Both the position numbers and the translations under genes were made by a program. A model generated the notes under the pieces. It did no database searches and was not told where the DNA came from. It worked only from the letters and a program-made list of their open reading frames with translations. From positions 9,114,001-9,178,000 of the forward strand of contig OZ004608.1 in assembly GCA_963924565.1 (NCBI GenBank): 64,000 nucleotides of DNA, written 5' to 3'. The stretch's first letter is position 1. Each line of letters begins with the position of its first letter. Shown here one piece after another: positions 21,801-47,700 of this stretch. The DNA is from Ascidiella aspersa. Its lineage: Eukaryota.

Positions 21801-24800
21801 TTTATATGGTTAGATTTGTTGTAATTGGTTCTGATAAAACGTTCGCCAATACTTCAAAAAAAATTGTGGATGTAATACGTAGACATTGCTCATAATGATT
21901 TGATTTGAATCATTTACGCCAATGTCCTATGTATTGTTCTCTTGCAAAAGTTTCAGTGAAAATAATTGGCTCAAAAAATAAGAAGGCATTTGTTGTTATA
22001 ACTGCTCTTTGTACTTGGGTCGTTACAAAAAAAGGTTGAGAAACAGTGTATTAATGCAACGCGTGCAAGGTTTAACACGTGCGAAATGCTAAGGGGCATG
22101 CCGTGGCCCGCGAAACACTAATCGCAACCCTTTTTGTCGTAATTCTGCCCTAACCGGCTGCTGAAATGCATGAAGTAATATTAATAATATATTGTTAATT
22201 CCTGTGTTGTTATTTTCGATCGTGCATTTTCGTGTGTTTTACGGTTCAACTGCGGGCTAGTAATTTGCTGTAGTGATCATCGGTATAGTTAAAAAAAGTA
22301 ATTTCTGTGCGTAATTTCAGCTTTTGCCTATAATTTATTTGTAATTTTTTAACCTTCAGCGTCACATTCTGTTAGGCCTCTCACCTTTAGCGAGTCAGTT
22401 GTCGTGATTTTTTTAAAGAAACGAAACTGGCATGGGTGTTTTTTTAAGTACTGTTCGTTTTGTCTCGTGCAGATCCGATGAATTCTGATTACATGGGAAA
22501 ACCCCTTCCTCACCCGCAAATGTCACAATCGGTAAGCCCCGATCGTAATGTCAAGTTTGTTGAGTTTCAAGAAAAAGAAGCATTTATCACATTTTTATAA
22601 TCGCGGCAATGATCAAACCGCTCACCAACTTAAAAAATACTAATTGTTTATTCTGGTATAATCTTTAACATTGTACGCTGTGCACACCTATGTTTTTTAT
22701 CACAAAGTAGCTGACATTTAATGAGTGTTCAACTTTAATTGTTCATGTCATCGCCGCGTTTGTATTTAATTAAATGGCAATCGAATTTTCGAATTACGCC
22801 GCCTAAGAGCAATAATGTTGCTACCTGCCTCTGGAACATTTGTAATGCATCTCTCTTTGAATAAATCGCTCTTGGGGGCTACCCTGAAAGTTAGCATCTA
22901 ATATTTTAAATTTTGGTTTAATCATTAGGAGCTTTGATTAGATTCGAATTTCCATCCGGAGAATCTACTAGCGCTTGTAACCAATGGGAGAAAGTTTGAA
23001 TCTCGTTTGATTTTTGTGTTCAAGTAATTTTTATCAAAAAGTAAACTCCTCATTCGCAAATTGTATGATTTTTTGTGAGCGCTGTTCATATGATTAAAAT
23101 TATGCTTTTTCAAACATGAATTTAAAATATCTTTAAACTTTTATACGATTTATCTGTCCCTTTCTTACTTGTTTTGTGTTTTTTTTGTGTTTTTTTACTA
23201 TTAAGTAACTGAACAGAGGATACTTAAAGCTTTACCTTACTTTAAAAACATGTTTTGCGATATGCAGCAACCATAATGACGTAATTGTGTTTGTAGTACC
23301 CGGGGGGTCAAGATGGCCCCATCCCCCCGACCTCGATGCCGATTTCCGGGGGAGCCCCGATGTCGGTGTCGACCCCGAATATGGTGCAGCCCCTGAACGG
23401 AATGAACGGAACCGGCCCCGATACTTCCATGATGGACGGGATGCCCAAGGTTAGTTTGTTATTCTCTTTTGTAATCTGAAATAAATAGATCCAAAAGAGC
23501 CACAACGGTTAAAAATATCTACAACAACCTTATTGAAATGCAGGATACTGCGGCTACGCCAAAAACAGCATCATTATTTCTGCTAAAAAAACTAATTCGA
23601 AAGTATATGCTGTTTTTCCGAATATAAACAATAAAAATGATAGTTATAAGTAAAAAAAAATCGCGTTATTTTAAAATCGCCCTGAATTTTAGTTACATTT
23701 TTTAGTAAACCAGTGATTCCCAACCGGAGTTGGGAAATTCCGCGGCACCCTTTTGTATTGTTTATAAAACTCCAAGAGTGTCGCGTATATTTTAAATTGT
23801 TTTGTATTTAACTTTTGGCTTACTTCTTGTTTAAATTTTCTACACTTTCACAGTGCACCAAATCGGAAAGTTTTCCTGCATTGTGGGCATTTATGTGCTT
23901 TTCGATTTTTTTCAGTTTCGTTTGTTGTGAAATTGCATTAAACCACTTATCGAACGTGGTGATGCGCACCGTTTATACCAGGGGTTCTTAACCTTTTTTG
24001 TATGTTTTATAGGGTTGTAAAGGGGTGGAAAGTTTCCGGGAATTTGGGAAACTTTCCTGGAATTTTGAAGGACCCGGGAATAATGGGAATATTGGGAATT
24101 TTCAAATTTGGCATTTATGATGTTTAAAACATTTGTTAAATATTTTATCAACCAGAAAAAAATATTGAAAACCGATCTTAAGCATTTCTAGTTGAGTAGG
24201 AGGAGATGACAATGAAGTTACTAAGAGATAAGGATTTTGCCAATTAACTAAAATAGCTATCATCGCGAAAAATAATGTTATCGACACTAGATTATAAAGA
24301 ATTAATAGGCTACTATAGGCTAACTTAGCAGTTAATCTGAACTAGGAAGGTAGGCCACCAATACCTACGGCTTGCACACTTTTTGTCCTGTCAGCTGATG
24401 TGAGGCTTTTGATTGATAGCTTATTTACCCCCTAAAACGAAAAAATTTACCCCAGGTTAAGAAAGGCTGGTTTATACTCTATTTATGGTGCCCTAAGGTT
24501 GAAAAGCTAAGACCTAAATTACCACGCGAGAACACTTAAACAGGTCAACATCACCATTTCTCCTACATTTCCAGAGTTCGCCCAGCAGCATGTCGATGAA
24601 CAACATGGCGGGTCCCGCTCCGCCGCAGATGGGTCCACCTAGCGGACCGGGCGGCGCGCCTCACACGCCGCAAGAGGGCGACGACGGGGCGTTCGGCATG
24701 GTGCCCGGCTTCAGCGAGAACGTGAGTAGCAACCCGCAGATGGGATCGTACTGACGACGGCCGGACGCCGCGCGCCACACTCTGACGCGCTTCCTGCGCT

Positions 24801-26834
24801 CGTGACGTCATCATTGCGTGACGTAAAAGGCCTGCAAGCGAGGCGGTCGCCCTTCCCGAAAACGATCGAACGCCTGGTCCTCCCTGTTAAGGCGCCCGAT
24901 CCTTTTTCGTTTCTTTCTGACACCGAGCCGCGTTTTGTAATGTTGTAAATACACCGAGCGTCCGAGCTCTACTCAAGGACATTTTGTAAAGCGTTAACAA
25001 ATTAATTAACCAAATTTACCTTTAAATTGAGAGACTGTAGATGACTTTTCGGCGATTTTATTTATCAGTCGTAAAATGCTATAAAATGGCTGGCCTTATT
25101 TACGCCAGAAAGGTCTAAAAACAGGGGTGGACATTGGGCTTGGGCAACCTACAGCCCGCAGGCCAATAAAAAGCATCTGGCCCGCCATCTTATTTTCAAA
25201 CCAAACATGAGCCCGTTCCTTATATTATTTGGCTATTTCGACTAAATAAATACTGAAATATTTCGACCATGCGCAAATATCGTGTTCATGCATCTAAGGT
25301 GTTTGTATTTTAAGGGCATCTTTTCAGGCTAAAAATTACACATTTTAGAATATAATTGTCAGTTAAAATTTAACGACCCGCGGAGACCTTTCTGGCTTTG
25401 GCCTAAGAATGAAACGTTTGCCCACCCCTGGTCTAAAGAGTATCTACAGAAACGTCTTCTGTGTGGTCGCATCGCACTGTTATGTCACGCGGAATGTATT
25501 ACTAATTGGTGAATACATATAGAAAAATACGTAGCTGTTATTAACTGCCTTAACTCGATTGGTAAAACAGTTAGATTTCCTCTCGCCGGTCGCTTAAATT
25601 TTAACTTTGCTTCTTATGCTAATCACTCTGACGAATGGCAGATAAACACCACACATAATGCCGTCCAATAAAATAGCCCTGAATAGTGTCCAAAATAGTG
25701 ATTTCTATTTTAATGGACACTCGGAAATCACGCACAGCTAATCTTGCGCCGTCGGGAGTGGCCTGTCTTCAATATTTATTCCCACGCTCGGTCGTCCTAT
25801 ATTTTGTACATAAGCCGTTGTGATCAGCGGCCCAACTTCTCGCTTTGGTTGCCGCTTTTTTTCTGAGACGCGTCTCTCGTCGTTTCGACTTGAATAAAAC
25901 CCGATTTTCGTGAAAGTATTTTCTTCTTCTTCGATGTTGGAAGCCTTTGAGCGAAGATTCGACTCCGCGAAGTTTGAAAGAAGGCAGCTGCATGTGCATT
26001 TGCATCCGATATTGACATGTTTCGCTGTGTGTGCTTTTTTTGTACCTTACCTGTGTTAACCCCGCGATCCATTCGTGTCTATTTAAACAAAAATGACTAA
26101 AAAATAAATTAACGTTAGAGCCGCGAACAAATCGCGACTATTTTTACGAAACGAAGGAAGTATTTGTTTACCTCTTGCCTTAATTCCTGTCTCAGCTATT
26201 TTAATATTACTTAGGTCAACATACTGAAAAATATCAATTATGCTTTTCTATTTCTAACCTTTTGGCAATATCAATATTAACATAATAACATAAAAAGTCT
26301 TTTTTATTAAAATTACTACGATTGTGATCTGAAATCTCCCTAGCTGTTATAAGGACTAATACCAAATTTCGCTCAGGCAACGAAAGCAAGCTGTCTATTA
26401 CATAGCGTGTGGTGTTCTTGCTCGGCTTTTACCATAACAAACATGTCGTCTTCGCCTAAAACTTGTGACTAAACATAAAACTTCAGTAACACGAGGCTGT
26501 ATATTGTACATGGTCAAACCACTAACCCGGTGTTCCTTGTTGTTTTTTCCATGTCCCTCAATATGCATTGTGCCTCCTCTGCCTGTCGAATGCTCGCTTT
26601 CGTCGCTCAACTAACCAACCGTCGCATGCCCCCCGTGCCCTCCCTCATCATGACGTCGTGCGCACCTCGTGACGTCACGCCTGCTCTGACGTCACGTCCC
26701 GTCAGCAGACGCACAACGAGTCGGCGGCCATCTTGAAGATCAAAGAGACCATGCAACAGGAAGCCAAGAGGTTCGAGGCAAAAGACGGGGACGGAAATGG
26801 TACCGTCGGCGGGGAATTCCCTTTTATGTCGTGA
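898..26834 (+). CDS. SSBP3: Single-stranded DNA-binding protein SSBP2/3/4 (Ssdp) pro-orthologue, 5'-truncated (LisH/LUFS N-terminus lies upstream of the window)
   Basis: Phase-consistent GT-AG exons: 898-960 (PGSAASPSPHHNPNNPMMRQQ), 1755-1805 (SYMSPRYPPGGPRPGMQ), 2137-2179 (GPGPQPLLPGMERQG), 18992-19089 (PQMVPMTRMVHPRGMPGGPMGPG..), 19331-19389, 19938-19977 (HARPGWPNPSGPV), 20195-20246 (GPPTGGPPGNPIMRSPQ), 22473-22531, 23297-23449 (..MMDGMPK), 24575-24721 (SSPSS..HTPQEGDDG..FSEN), 26706-26834 (QTHNESAAILKIKETMQQEAKRFE..FMS*). Motif order matches the recalled vertebrate SSBP3 Pro/Gly/Met-rich region (FMSPRY, QPLLP, PPRGM, WPNP, GPPGTPIMPSP, DGLPK, TPRDDG). The symbol stands for the SSBP2/3/4 family. 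Confidence 0.9.
1219..1653 (+). mobile_element. hAT-type MITE with internal GGAGC(C/T) tandem repeats
   Basis: 15-bp TIR CAGGGCTGGGGAGCC..GGCTCCCCAGCCCTG, perfect 8-bp TSD GTTGTAAG (1211-1218, 1654-1661). Confidence 0.92.
2965..3163. repeat. AT-rich minisatellite, ~39-bp unit, about 5 degenerate copies
   Basis: Recurrent TTTCTCAAAACAAA(A/T)TACCTT..AAAATCGTACCAAG. Confidence 0.8.
6616..7106. mobile_element. hAT (Charlie/Buster-like) MITE
   Basis: TIR CAGGGGTGTCCAAC..GTTGGACACCCCTG, perfect TSD CTTTACAC. Confidence 0.9.
8210..8530. repeat. Tandem duplication, period ~185 bp
   Basis: CTGCGGTT..CACCCGTTTAGGCT..CCCAACAAAGAGAGTCATATATTTCTAAAATCGGGCCGCG occurs twice. Confidence 0.85.
11642..11982. 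repeat. Tandem duplication, period ~153-179 bp
   Basis: TTGTTGGCGATTCAA..GGTAAAATACTGxAGTCCGGCG..CGAGGTAGGTGGCCGCTTAA occurs twice. Confidence 0.8.
12432..12513. repeat. 28-bp tandem repeat, 3 copies
   Basis: TCTCACC(T/A)TATTCTGGT(C/T)GCCCAAAACG. Confidence 0.8.
12954..13440. repeat. Tandem triplication, period ~166-170 bp
   Basis: ACAAGCACAGCCG (12965, 13131, variant at 13301) and GCCAGAGTTCGC(C/T)AAGGG each occur three times. Confidence 0.85.
20840..20914 (+). CDS. Candidate 75-nt symmetric cassette exon of SSBP (GPRPHMHPGPHPSRFPPLPHDPKNP)
   Basis: TAG acceptor ending 20839, CAG|GTGACC donor at 20914/20915. Phase 1-1 matches the host intron 20247-22472, frame is open and Pro/His-rich, and it is a GC-rich island in an AT-rich intron. 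Confidence 0.6.
21745..22048. mobile_element. hAT MITE
   Basis: TIR CAGTGTTTCTCAACC..GGTTGAGAAACAGTG, perfect TSD TATTAATG. Confidence 0.85.
23979..24469. mobile_element. hAT MITE, apparently nested in an older element beginning CAGTGATTCCCAAC at 23711
   Basis: Imperfect TIR CAGGGGTTCTTAACCT..AGGTTAAGAAAGGCTG, perfect TSD GTTTATAC. Confidence 0.8.
24722..24754 (+). CDS. Alternative SSBP C-terminus by read-through of the 24721 donor (VSSNPQMGSY*)
   Basis: The frame stays open through AAC|GTGAGT to TGA at 24752-24754. AATAAA signals follow in the intron (e.g. ~25667, ~25893). Confidence 0.5.
   Translation: MSSNPQMGSY
25122..25430. mobile_element. hAT (Charlie-like) MITE in the last SSBP intron
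   Basis: CAGGGGTGG..CCCACCCCTG termini, subterminal GGCCCGC motifs, GTCTAAA on both flanks. Confidence 0.75.
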
Positions 26835-28667
26835 TCCGGCGCGGAACCAGACGCCCCTGGCGCCATGGCGCGTCGGGGCCCGCGAAGCCCCTTAAAAGAC
26901 GCCACGGCGCCAACCCGCATAGTCAGCTCGCACACTTGGAATGAAAAGCCCTTTTCTCGCCTAGCCAAGAACCTGCGCGTTTTTTTAACGTAAAAACATA
27001 TACTCACACGTAGCTTGAATGAGCTTCGCGAACAACCCGTTAATAACACTAAAATAGTTTGAGTTAAACTAATTAACCAGCGACCAGTTTTACAACATTC
27101 GTCTTTAATAATTGAGCTTTTTTGACAAAGACCTAAATCATTGCCGAACGTTGAACCATCAGAGCTTCAGTAGTAGTATACCTTTTAACCTGTTGCGGAA
27201 TTTTAGAGCGACAAACTAAAAAGAATGATATCGCATGTAACATTTCAACGCTTTTTGGGACAAAACAAGACGCAAGTGTTATTTGTTTAACATCCTTAAA
27301 AAGACAGCCCTTGTCTGGCAAATGTACGATATTTCAAGTACATTTAAGTCGAGTTATGTCTGGTTCAAGAACGCTGTGTTGTACACTTAAAAAAAATATA
27401 CCCAAAATAAAATGAAAAGATGTCCACTATTTACTTGACCTTGCCTTACTTACACTTCAAAGCATCGGAACAACCTAACTACCTTACTTTAGCAACTGAA
27501 TGGCAGAAAACCTTTTTGTCACGTCCGCTTCATGTGCTGCAAGTTTGTAAACTCGCCCGCGTCTTCTCGCTATACCTTTACGCGCTTCGAACGTTGCCCT
27601 AAACTAAATTTACCGAAATACGCTAATTTTTTTTCTTAGGGGGCATTTGGTATATATACATGATCGGTATTGACATAAATACGTTGTATCGAGCATCCGT
27701 AATAAACACGCTAAACACAGCGTTTGAATTACGAGCGTTATGCAATTGAACAGGTTAGTGATACGGACGGGCTTATATTGTAGCCGCAAAAACATCGTAT
27801 TTTTTTACTGCTGTACGCTGGGTTCGCTGCCCGTGTAAGCAACCCGACTTTTCGGTTTTACAGATCAAACGGCAAAACAGTTCCCTAACAATTGAGCATT
27901 TCCTAACACCGTTTCGTAACCCTTGAAACACCCGCGCGCTTTCGCAAGCACACTCACTCACACACACACAAGCACGCACAGTGTGGTCACTGTGATGCAA
28001 CCTGTCGCTGTTTCGACTTATTTAATTCGACCGCGCGAGCATATACGTCTCTGCTTAACGCTTCTTGCGTTTTCTTGACCGGCCACGCATTTCTATCTAC
28101 ATATAACGTCGTGTCTTTTCGCTTTTTTGTACAGCGCTTTGTATATATTGTCGGAGCCGCCGACGGTTCTCTTTCGAGGTACGCACGTAGCTTAGAACTT
28201 CAGACGCAAAATTGTAGCCCCCATTTGTTCAACGTGTCGAAAAAGCTACTGATAGTTGGTAGTTCGAACTTTCGGATTTTGATTGCCCAGTAAAAACGGC
28301 CAATTCAGGAAGCAGCAGCCCCCCTACTAACGCCCTGTTTTGTGCCATATTTTAACTGGACTTTCAAACTGAACCCCCAAAAATGTAGGCTGGCCTTTGG
28401 TGTGTAAACAATCCGTTTTGGCCTATGACCTATACCTGTATTTTACAGTGTCCGTACAAGAATCGCTCTCTCATATATCGTTTTACTTTAAATCCGTTCA
28501 TTCGATTTTTATGCTGATCTTTGCGTTGTATTCGCATTTAATGTCGTTTAAAATGTAAAACCACTTGGCTGAAGCGTTCGACGGAGTCAAATTTCCTTGT
28601 CAAAATCAATATAAAACCTAAATGGTAAACGATGAAACAACAGGGCATGTCATACAATGGTATATAG

Positions 28668-44700: not shown

Positions 44701-47700
44701 AGATAAAAAGAGACTGAAAAGGTGTATTTAAATTGTAAAGCTGTTTGTTTTTATAAATTACCGCTCCAATAGTTGTAAATTTTTTGATTGTCATGATACT
44801 TTCTAAAGCAGGTTTTTTCTAAAGCCATTGTCATGATACTTTCTAAAGCAGGGGTTCTGAAACTTTATTTACCCCGGACCCCTAAATTGTTTTTTTGCTT
44901 CGCGTGGACCACGGTAAGCAAGAAATTTAAAAAATGACGTCATAATTTGACGTCGTAATACAAATAGACTGTAGCAATCTGCAGTTTTCAGTCCACAAAA
45001 TGTAAAAAGGAGAATAGAAATAGATACATTCGGTGCAAAAACGTTTTATTTTTAATTAAACTCTTTCCTTAGAAAAATTTATTACTTCCTAAATATACAC
45101 CAATATTTCAATTTGGCCTTCACGGACCCCCTAAAACTAGTTCACGGACCCCTAAGGGGTCTATGGACCCCAGTTTAAGAACCCCTGTTCTAAAGGTTTG
45201 CAAGTTAATCAACACTTGGGGCTTCAAATCTGTTTTTGCTTTTGCTTCTTTGCACGCAACAGTTTTATATGCGCCCTGGTCTTTGTTGAGTTCCCTATTT
45301 TGGCAATTTTTTTATTAGGTATGTGCGATACTTGGTATTTTATTTCTCTGTGTACGACAATCTGTATGAACAAATAAGCAGAAACAATTAAAACAAAAAT
45401 CATTTAGAGACTTTTTGTAAGTTAGAAAACAAAAATTTGCCTTGTTGAAGCGCAAACCATGGCTAAACTTCTTATGTCTATTGGATATGTGATCGCCACC
45501 GATAACAACCTAGTATCCGGACGAGTAGCAAAACTACCACTAAATATTAGGTATTAGGTACCACATGATGTTACCGAACGTGCTTGGTTATCTGAAACAT
45601 TTATAGCAATTGTGTATACAGGGTTTTATTTAGGGTTTGGTTTGGGTGACCGCTAAGTAGTTTTAAGAGACCGCAAGTGTTTCATTTAAATACCAAAAAG
45701 TCCAAAATTTGGGAAACCGCTGGAGAAATTTGGGGGACCGTTTCGCTTCCCCAAAAAACCTTAAAAAAAACACCGTGTGTATAACAACTGAGATCTCGCT
45801 CTTCAGAAGTCGTACTGCCAATGATAACGGCACACATATCACCTCAATAGGCGCCGAACTTGTAATTCCATGGCGTTTTTTTTCTCGGCGGTGCAGAATT
45901 GCTTATTAATTTAACCTAACAATAATTTAACTAAACGTAACAATAATTGAAAAAATGCATAACACATAACAAACATAGTTTGGGAATTCTATGGCATCGT
46001 GTCTATATGTTAATTCAGGGAAATTTTAAACACCTTTGATTTACTAAAACTAAAATATTTTGCACATTTATTAAAAACGTTTTGACGCCCTGCGAGAAAT
46101 CCAGGGCGTCTAAGAGCGCTCTGCACGTTCGGCGCCTATGCCTCACTGCACGCTAGTTGTTTTTCTAGCCTGGCCTTGCTTGCACAAAATCCTTAATTGA
46201 TCAACTGATTTTGGTTTCCCTCTAAACCAGGGATGTACGACCCGCATTGCGGCCCGCCTGGTGTTCATGTGCGGCCCACCACTTATTCTCACTTTCAGTA
46301 GCCTTTATTTAAAGCAATTGTTTCTACTTTCGACCATCATAAAACCGTGTAGAACACGTAGTATTTCATGAAGGTCTAATCTTATATGTATTGTGAGTCT
46401 ATAATCGAGCCCAATGTCGCATTTCAACATCAGTCGAACACATGCGTACCCATTGTTGTTGTGTGTTTTTGCGGACCGGTTCAAGGAAATATATTAGCCG
46501 AAAAGGTGTCGTTTACAATGGCATAATACGGCATTTATAAACTCAATTTAAGGCGAAGTTGTTTTATGACGTCACGATATGACGTAACTTATGACGTCAC
46601 CCATTTAATTTAATAGGTTTTGCCGCCTATCGAAGTGGTAATGCGACCCATTCGTCTAAAAGGTTGGACATCCCTGCCCTAAAGGCTCCCGGTTTGCTTA
46701 GTCATCAAACGGTCGAAGTTGTTATTAATCGTAAAAATAACATTAGCGATTTTTTGCAGGACAACATTCTTACTCAGCTGGCGATAACTGCGTCGAAGAT
46801 GGAAGGCCTGCAGGTGATCTCTACCGACATGCAGGACCTAGTGCGATTCGTGCATCAGAACGCAGAACAACGCAGGAAAGAGGTAGAACAGTGTTTGTTG
46901 CTTATATACGAAAACACTATGCGGCACACAGTTTATGTTAGCGGTGTATTAGCTGTAGAAATGCCTGCAGTACACATATTGTGATCTTTCGATATAGTTT
47001 GTTTGCTGTTTGAACAAACGTCTAGTTATACAACAGATTCTTTCAGGGTGCGGTTAAAATCCACCTCTTAATCATTTTGATAAACGTTTAATTCACCTCG
47101 CTAACACAAAAAGATGAAAGCATATTCTATTGTCTACACTACAGAGTCTAGGACGCAAGTACACATGTGATATGAAACAGTTTATGTTTCCAAGGTTAAT
47201 TACTGGCCAACTGGAATGAAAGGGATTTGGTAGTTCTTGTGCGACTGTTATTTATGTGGTCTTATTTTTCCTTAAATTAGATACAAACCCAAGTTGACTC
47301 TATCCTCGACCACCAGCGGGATATTGAAGATTTGCTGAAGGGGGTAAAACAAACCGACCAAGAAATGATCGGAAGCAGCAAGGTAAGCAATTTCGGGCAC
47401 TTTAAAAATAAAGCTAACCAAGACCAAGTGACTAATTAATACTTTTGTATTATATACTTTTCATTCTTAACGAATAAAAATCTGTGTTTTACAGGCGGAA
47501 ATGGAGAAAATGATGGCAATGGTGAGTATCTATAATTTTGTTGCATATTGTTGACTTTTTCCCACTTTTTTAAAAAGTCGAATAAAAAAAATATAATAAA
47601 AATGATTTTTTAATTTACTTTGAAATAAACTTAACATTGATATTTAAGGTATTTAGCACATTAGTAATATTTTATAAAGCCGGTCGGAGATAATAAAAAG

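Follow-up and report, generated by a model that had tools for sequence, protein, structure and literature searches.

The last intron of an apparent SSBP/SSDP gene of Ascidiella aspersa separates two conserved C-termini and would be spliced from a distant branch point, predicted at A26525, with the TGACGTCA clusters at its two ends not acting as a conserved switch, a reading to which a probability of about 0.55 is given. The gene lies in a 64,000-nt stretch of DNA that was analysed as a whole (hereafter the window; features in Table 1), for which an initial annotation had proposed that mutually exclusive TGACGTCA pairings could control the isoform choice. This proposal was not sustained, as the motif is abundant, is absent from the orthologous intron of locus L062 and pairs near the level of shuffled sequences. 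The clusters are probably copies, specific to this lineage, of a word found in large numbers throughout the genome, and not a conserved pairing switch.

Table 1. Features at the 3′ end of the SSBP/SSDP gene, in window positions; negative numbers are distances to the acceptor.
Feature	Position	Strand	Remarks
Penultimate SSBP/SSDP coding exon	24575..24721	+	ends ...GFSEN; phase-0 donor after 24721; based on translation
Short tail VSSNPQMGSY-stop, by read-through	24722..24754	+	begins at the 5′ splice site GTGAGT
Alternative last intron	24722..26705	+	1984 nt; 3′ UTR of the short isoform if retained
5′ TGACG cluster	24752..24824	+	sites 24752, 24783, D 24801-24810, E 24816-24824; local D:E hairpin
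MITE-like insertion	25122..25431	.	terminal inverted repeats, near-duplicated 7-8 nt flank; raised DNA read depth
AG-exclusion zone	26496..26703	+	208 nt; longest AG-free plus-strand run in the 64-kb window
Predicted branch point CACTAAC and adjoining U-rich tract	26520..26556	+	A26525, -181; zone start -210
3′ TGACGTC cluster A, B, C	26651..26696	+	starts 26651, 26670, 26687; ~18-nt spacing
Tandem acceptor CAG/CAG	26703..26708	+	one Gln more or less; from sequence
Terminal exon, long tail QTHNESAAILKIKETMQQEAKRFE...FMS-stop	26706..26834	+	42-aa tail; 79% identical to Clavelina lepadiformis SSBP P0001

Two C-terminal tails at the last SSBP junction

By homology of its last exon to Clavelina P0001, which carries PF04503, the gene appears to be a member of SSBP/SSDP. 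Two window fragments searched alone gave no SSDP match, the Clavelina proteins P0003 and P0004 match PF04503 above the cut-off, and the model covers neither tail. The penultimate exon showed 77% DNA identity with L062, and its peptide agrees by inspection with P0003 and P0004. The initial annotation had placed a C-terminal isoform choice at this last SSBP intron, which was borne out, as both endings are annotated in Clavelina (P0003 long, P0004 short) and in Ciona (P0127 long, P0131 short). The short tail has its counterparts in L062 (VSNNPQMGSY-stop), P0004 and P0131, with similar short endings in three other proteins (P0009, P0010 and P0012). Its 33 nt differ between the window and L062 by three synonymous changes and one replacement, and this mainly synonymous change is suggestive of selection acting on the peptide. 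Proteins of echinoderms, hemichordates, amphioxus, priapulids, molluscs and lampreys also end in the long tail, which sharks have in a diverged form, and alternative short endings at the same junction were found in sea urchins, amphioxus and sharks, as well as in ascidians. Judging from these protein records, the choice between two tails at this junction may be old.

A single Gln at the tail junction sets the Ciona isoforms P0127 and P0007 apart, as the tandem acceptor of the window would permit, and the L062 acceptor has a single AG. In addition, shark, paddlefish/sturgeon and bird SSBP3 records (P0014, P0020, P0032 and P0056) have preserved a diverged long tail as one of their alternative endings, beside the usual short vertebrate ending. 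Further upstream, an internal exon encoding GPRPHMHPG... occurs in both genomes (window 20840-~20915, L062:2387-~2464); the segment is present in Clavelina P0003 and missing from P0001 and P0006, so this exon is likely a conserved cassette exon.

Layout of the intron, transcript coverage and variation

The metagenome scan gave at least 596 stretches and at least 45 loci, and among the loci listed L062 and L063 carry the ascidian-type tail; as these are 99.8% identical to each other, they represent one orthologous intron in effect. Prokaryote and viral contigs, when searched, gave no further orthologous DNA. The intron is contained entirely in L062 (2409 nt) and has the same layout as that of the window, with a short tail by read-through as opposed to a long tail by splicing, an AG-free zone, and CTAAC followed by a U-rich tract.

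The boundaries in the window (donor AAC/GTGAGT after 24721, acceptor CAG/CAG ahead of 26706) were placed from homologous proteins, which point to GT..AG ends and an in-frame join. The acceptor region is single-copy. Five AATAAA words were found in the intron, two of which (25165 and 25245) sit within the MITE-like element. The 5′ splice site (window 24722-24755, L062:4595-4628) is predicted to pair with the Tyr-stop codons of the short tail, in a hairpin of -12.7 kcal/mol in the window and -14.5 kcal/mol in L062 (z of -1.37 and -1.48), located in coding sequence and showing no covariation. Each intron also has one TGCATG, which we take to be an Rbfox-type word, at different distances to the acceptor (window 25989, -717; L062:6704, -300), while ACTAAC, presumably a STAR/QKI-type word, is present in the AG-free zones of both. 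No Rfam match was obtained at E up to 1 in 24500-28600.

The RNA data came from a single stranded run, of which ~6% was read, with an overall depth of 0-9x. All coverage was sense, with 0.07-3.6x over eight repeat-free intron bins, 0-4x across the AG-free zone and 1.5-9.4x past the long-tail stop, and the depth was 0 both in the two motif-bearing bins and in two repeat-free bins of the preceding intron. At this shallow depth there was no splice joint of the intron among those listed, no lariat, and no clustered ends or poly(A) end. The coverage fits a partly retained intron or a long 3′ UTR, and pre-mRNA or 3′ bias would look alike.

The contigs of a second individual were identical to the window across 24447-25023 and differed at 16 positions across 26274-27774, none of them in 26402-26800. 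Such a difference-free stretch gives weak support to a possible constraint on the AG-free zone, clusters included. Moreover, two haplotypes of run X1 are set apart by 17 letter changes and 2 gap letters over the 244 nt of 26060-26303, with near-identical flanks.

A long AG-exclusion zone and a predicted distant branch point

The AG-free zone of L062 is 265 nt long and is, like that of the window, the longest on the plus strand of its locus. At other acceptors the zones span 22-59 nt (eight of the window gene) and 11-111 nt (six in L062), and only 6 of 60136 background AG-to-AG gaps reach at least 200 nt, two of these spanning N runs. Among 43 other-animal loci, zones of 13-77 nt were measured in 20 with an intron at the same place, some of these 20 being near-duplicates; the other 23, which were cDNA-like, too short or redundant, were left out of the count. 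None of the 41 other B:C-like doublets examined (of 71) stands in an AG-free run of 208 nt (maximum 192, median 66), so the zone is not a product of the motif.

Past the CACTAAC of the window, the next 30 nt comprise 23 pyrimidines, 15 of them T, and past its L062 counterpart (-168) 24 of 30, 18 of them T. In each species, the CTAAC at -181 or -168 is followed by the most U-rich 30-mer among all branch candidates, the others lying at -92, -59 and -17 in the window and in the range from -261 to -14 in L062, whose best candidate is ~100 nt inside its zone. The alignment of the branch-tract region between the two introns beat 970 of 1000 shuffles, a modest result. In -20 to -4 of the window acceptor there are just 4 T, compared with 8-10 at seven of the eight other acceptors of the gene; with 6 T of 17, the L062 acceptor does not stand out as poor in U.

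In the accessible part of the study by Gooding et al. (2006, PMC1431707), an AG-exclusion zone with a branch-like sequence and a pyrimidine tract is the mark of a distant branch point. The same portion links the layout to alternative splicing, describes zones conserved without alignable sequence, places regulatory elements usually between branch and AG, and estimates that no more than one half to one fifth of the human zones of at least 100 nt mark a distant branch point. The long zone and a branch consensus with a pyrimidine tract were both found here, and alternative splicing is annotated for Clavelina and Ciona.

The lariat at -181, the scanning to the first AG, the regulation of the isoform ratio and the 3′-end formation of the short isoform are proposed as follows. 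U2 would bind at the remote branch together with its U-tract, a lariat would arise at about -181, and scanning downstream would pick the first AG at 26704-5 or else the one after it at 26707-8; in such a scheme, AG would have been kept out of the 208 nt because scanning takes the first one that it finds. Retention of the intron, or polyadenylation within it, would be able to compete at a slow, weak acceptor whose proximal tract is poor, leading to the short tail.

The palindrome clusters and the abundance of their motif

The motifs described in the initial annotation were all found in place: CGTGACGTCA at 24801-24810 and GCGTGACGT at 24816-24824 (80 and 95 nt past the donor), together with the three TGACGTC units before the acceptor. 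Its pairings could likewise be drawn, namely the B:C hairpin (26668-26677 with 26687-26696; 10 Watson-Crick pairs, 9-nt loop, -14.2 kcal/mol), the A:B hairpin (26651-26660 with 26668-26677; 10 pairs including two G-U, -9.2 kcal/mol) and the long-range partners D:C and D:B (10 bp) and E:B (9 bp). Beyond these, a local D:E hairpin (24805-24811 with 24818-24824, pair probability ~0.95) and two more TGACG half-sites (24752 and 24783) were detected. In local folds, the pair probability of B:C ranged from 0.67 to 0.98 by context and that of A:B from 0.01 to 0.28, with the top value only in the shortest context. Both clusters contain CTCGTGACGTCA (24799 and 26666), and they resemble each other more as copies on the same strand than as complements.

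TGACGT is absent from both strands of the L062 intron, neither end of which has TGACG, although TGACGT occurs 11 times elsewhere in the 14-kb locus. Past the stop codon, the 5′ cluster region has no block alignable to L062 (711 of 1000 shuffles as good). A 17-nt match between site B and locus L107 was discarded as a shared element for falling in apparent coding sequence.

The word itself is common. A total of eight TGACGTCA copies were counted in the window, compared with 0.68 expected, and 60 evenly spaced genome stretches gave 40 copies in the first 200 kb and 65 in all 600 kb; by excess, the word is fourth among 8-mers in a 264-kb sample. The B:C-like doublet had 89 strand hits genome-wide (0 for the reversed control), which come to ~72 places, the window's own included, as 17 were counted by hand on both strands. 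A looser doublet followed by YAG had 944 hits, compared with 2 in the control, many from one repeat family. An abundant repeat family has two TGACGTCA copies 5 nt apart (window ~44900-44960 and many other genome places) and is the source of many doublets. The initial annotation had itself cautioned that TGACGTCA is also a CREB/ATF site with other occurrences in the window.

Regarding the clustering, 2 sites in 179 nt appeared in 71 of 20000 dinucleotide shuffles and 3 sites in 210 nt in 9 of 20000, while 31 of 2998 real background tiles of 200 nt had at least 2 sites and 3 of 2998 had 3 sites. Clusters at both ends would thus occur at ~1e-5 per intron, or about one case per genome for an assumed ~1e5 introns. 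Such an arrangement is unusual per intron, yet expected about once in a whole-genome read, and chance is not a full explanation for its presence at this regulated intron.

Possible other roles for the clusters and the zone

The clusters may instead be DNA sites for CREB/ATF-type bZIP proteins, grouped as two small enhancer modules in the intron that have no part in the splicing choice. This is unlikely, albeit in keeping with the presence of clustered TGACGTCA/TGACG sites, including the same-strand copies of CTCGTGACGTCA, with the identity of TGACGTCA as the canonical CRE and with the lack of promoter bias of CREs in Ciona, both according to the available text of PMC1796609. However, the sites are not conserved in L062, and doublets also occur in the repeat family and in apparent coding sequence, so that their presence alone implies no function.

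Single-stranded sites for a splicing regulator, either UGACG repeats or overlapping YCAY, would offer another role, in which the clusters tune the distant-branch intron in this lineage. YCAY words are bound by Nova proteins. The 4:1 sense-strand bias of TGACG in the 5′ cluster, six YCAY in the AG-free zone and three past the donor, and the location of the 3′ cluster between the predicted branch and the AG are all consistent with this role. In contrast, the L062 zone has only two YCAY, TGACG is at neither end of that intron, and the predicted hairpins would bury the 3′ copies, which makes such a role quite improbable.

Cluster unit C overlaps the proximal branch candidate CTCTGAC (A26689, -17), and splicing could start from this or an intermediate candidate (-59, -92), the AG-free zone then being a pyrimidine-rich regulatory tract. 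Both zones are 64-65% pyrimidine, and part of the long human zones is unrelated to branching, as reported in the accessible text of PMC1431707. Nevertheless, zones of the same composition average 6-8 AG, with only 12 and 2 of 20000 shuffles free of AG, a significance overstated because the zone bounds are set by the absence of AG. Furthermore, no U-rich tract follows the -17 site, whose L062 equivalent is at -14. A proximal or intermediate branch is considered improbable, and the distant branch at A26525 is the preferred reading.

Pairing between the two ends of the intron

The entire intron was folded at minimum energy and under constraints, and its two ends were co-folded. The long-range pairing foreseen in the initial annotation did form in the co-fold, as three colinear antiparallel helices (D:C, E:B and 24782-87 with 26700-05), one of them across the acceptor AG, whereas the minimum-energy fold of the whole intron kept the local hairpins; imposing the long-range pair raised the energy by 2.7 kcal/mol. 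This gap is within model error, so the local and long-range states could compete. Complementary elements of at least 10 nt with mutually exclusive partners are present, an exclusivity that follows from the palindrome itself.

With wide bounds, the net gain of long-range pairing was -9.0, compared with shuffle means from -10.1 to -11.4, and 111-142 of 200 shuffles were as good. With tight, hand-chosen bounds it was -12.4, a borderline value: 36 of 1000 dinucleotide shuffles attained as much, as did 66-68 of 1000 in which the motifs were kept. The raw duplex, at -41.5, beat 1000 of 1000 dinucleotide shuffles but was matched by 72 or 210 of 1000 when the motif cores were kept. Among background cluster strands, 1 of 50 pairs as well, and the opposite, unphysiological strand pairs better (-48.7 vs. 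-41.5). None of seven local folds had a significant z against shuffles (e.g. 0.76, -0.75 and -0.95). In L062, the whole-intron fold contains no pairs between the donor region and the acceptor zone, and the pre-acceptor spacer folds worse than shuffles (z +2.41). A long-range AAGCG:CTCGCTT pair, hinted at by a 12-nt inverted match between the species (E 0.23), and a GT(G/C)ACGTAAA block were rejected as conserved elements, as the regions align no better than shuffles (711 and 676 of 1000).

Positional conservation of the motifs, the initial annotation's own test for the switch, failed in the one distant orthologue, with 0 TGACGT/ACGTCA in 2409 nt. A lineage-specific form, in which competition between the local hairpins (D:E and B:C or A:B) and the three long-range helices sets the isoform ratio, would agree with the colinear helices of the two-fragment fold, with their lying merely 2.7 kcal/mol above the whole-intron minimum, and with a raw duplex that surpasses every dinucleotide shuffle as well as 49 of the 50 background cluster strands. 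The 3′ cluster also lies between the predicted branch and the AG, the usual place of regulatory elements in the accessible portion of PMC1431707, and none of the 16 differences of the second individual falls in 26402-26800. Against such a switch are the wide-bound net gain weaker than the shuffle means, the motif-core-kept shuffles and the better opposite strand, the lack of motifs, of donor-acceptor pairs and of a structured spacer in L062, and the lack of an Rfam match. Moreover, in the predicted long-range state the acceptor AG and the -17 branch candidate are both paired, so that splicing would probably be impeded, not favoured. The alternation of B:C and A:B could mask or expose the -17 candidate. 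Only a small chance is conceded to a lineage-specific switch, because there is a single distant orthologue for comparison.

Significance

Developmental enhancer complexes include SSBP/SSDP as a core partner of LDB1. The long tail of this protein persists in animals from priapulids and molluscs to lampreys, with alternative endings recurring at one junction across groups. No literature on the choice of SSBP tail was found in searches, also on ascidian branch points, that covered few subscription papers. The distant-branch intron in two ascidian-like genomes would give a concrete handle on tail switching in Ciona-type embryos. Furthermore, self-complementary transcription-factor words can mimic RNA switches, which makes an orthologue and a motif-preserving control necessary. 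It is improbable that the CRE word, as the commonest palindrome of the genome, was recruited into an RNA switch on top of an older distant-branch-point intron, alternating between local hairpins and a three-helix stem that covers the acceptor AG; if true, the recruited switch would decide whether SSBP keeps its pan-bilaterian tail, with the same letters possibly doubling as CREB/ATF DNA sites. The AG-exclusion and distant-branch layout is already known, and by analogy the last SSBP intron would be a further case.

Comparison with known systems

The SSBP/SSDP family (PF04503) is a partner of Chip/LDB in the available text of PMC4571689, a portion in which nothing was found on the SSDP C-terminus. 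The exons of the window match Clavelina and Ciona SSBP proteins, and neither tail lies within the PF04503 model.

As far as the accessible portions of these papers go, the switches of Drosophila PGRP-LC (PMC6191721), of the conserved complementary regions with the Nmnat splicing/polyadenylation switch (PMC8052449) and of human ATE1 (PMC7797038) share with the window that exclusive helices of at least 10 bp can be drawn near an alternative 3′ end. However, those switches rest on conserved elements and, for PGRP-LC, also on minigene mutagenesis, while the partners in the window are self-complementary copies of a common word, missing from the one orthologue. By sequence comparison with this distant orthologue, the intron of the window appears to lack the conservation that characterizes competing-pairing switches.

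In the yeast introns of COF1 and UBC13, as presented in the available part of PMC3239191, a stem lies between branch and acceptor, and a hairpin such as B:C would similarly shorten that distance. The yeast stems mask internal AGs, whereas the zone of the window simply has none, and the spacer of the window folds no better than shuffles (z -0.75), that of L062 even worse (z +2.41).

Compared with the distant-branch-point exons described in the accessible text of PMC1431707, the branch is here a predicted one, in a terminal intron of an invertebrate chordate with a choice between splicing and read-through, instead of next to a human internal exon. On the other hand, both share a zone of at least 150 nt, a branch-like word with a pyrimidine tract toward the 5′ end of that zone, alternative splicing, and a zone conserved in the orthologue without alignable sequence.
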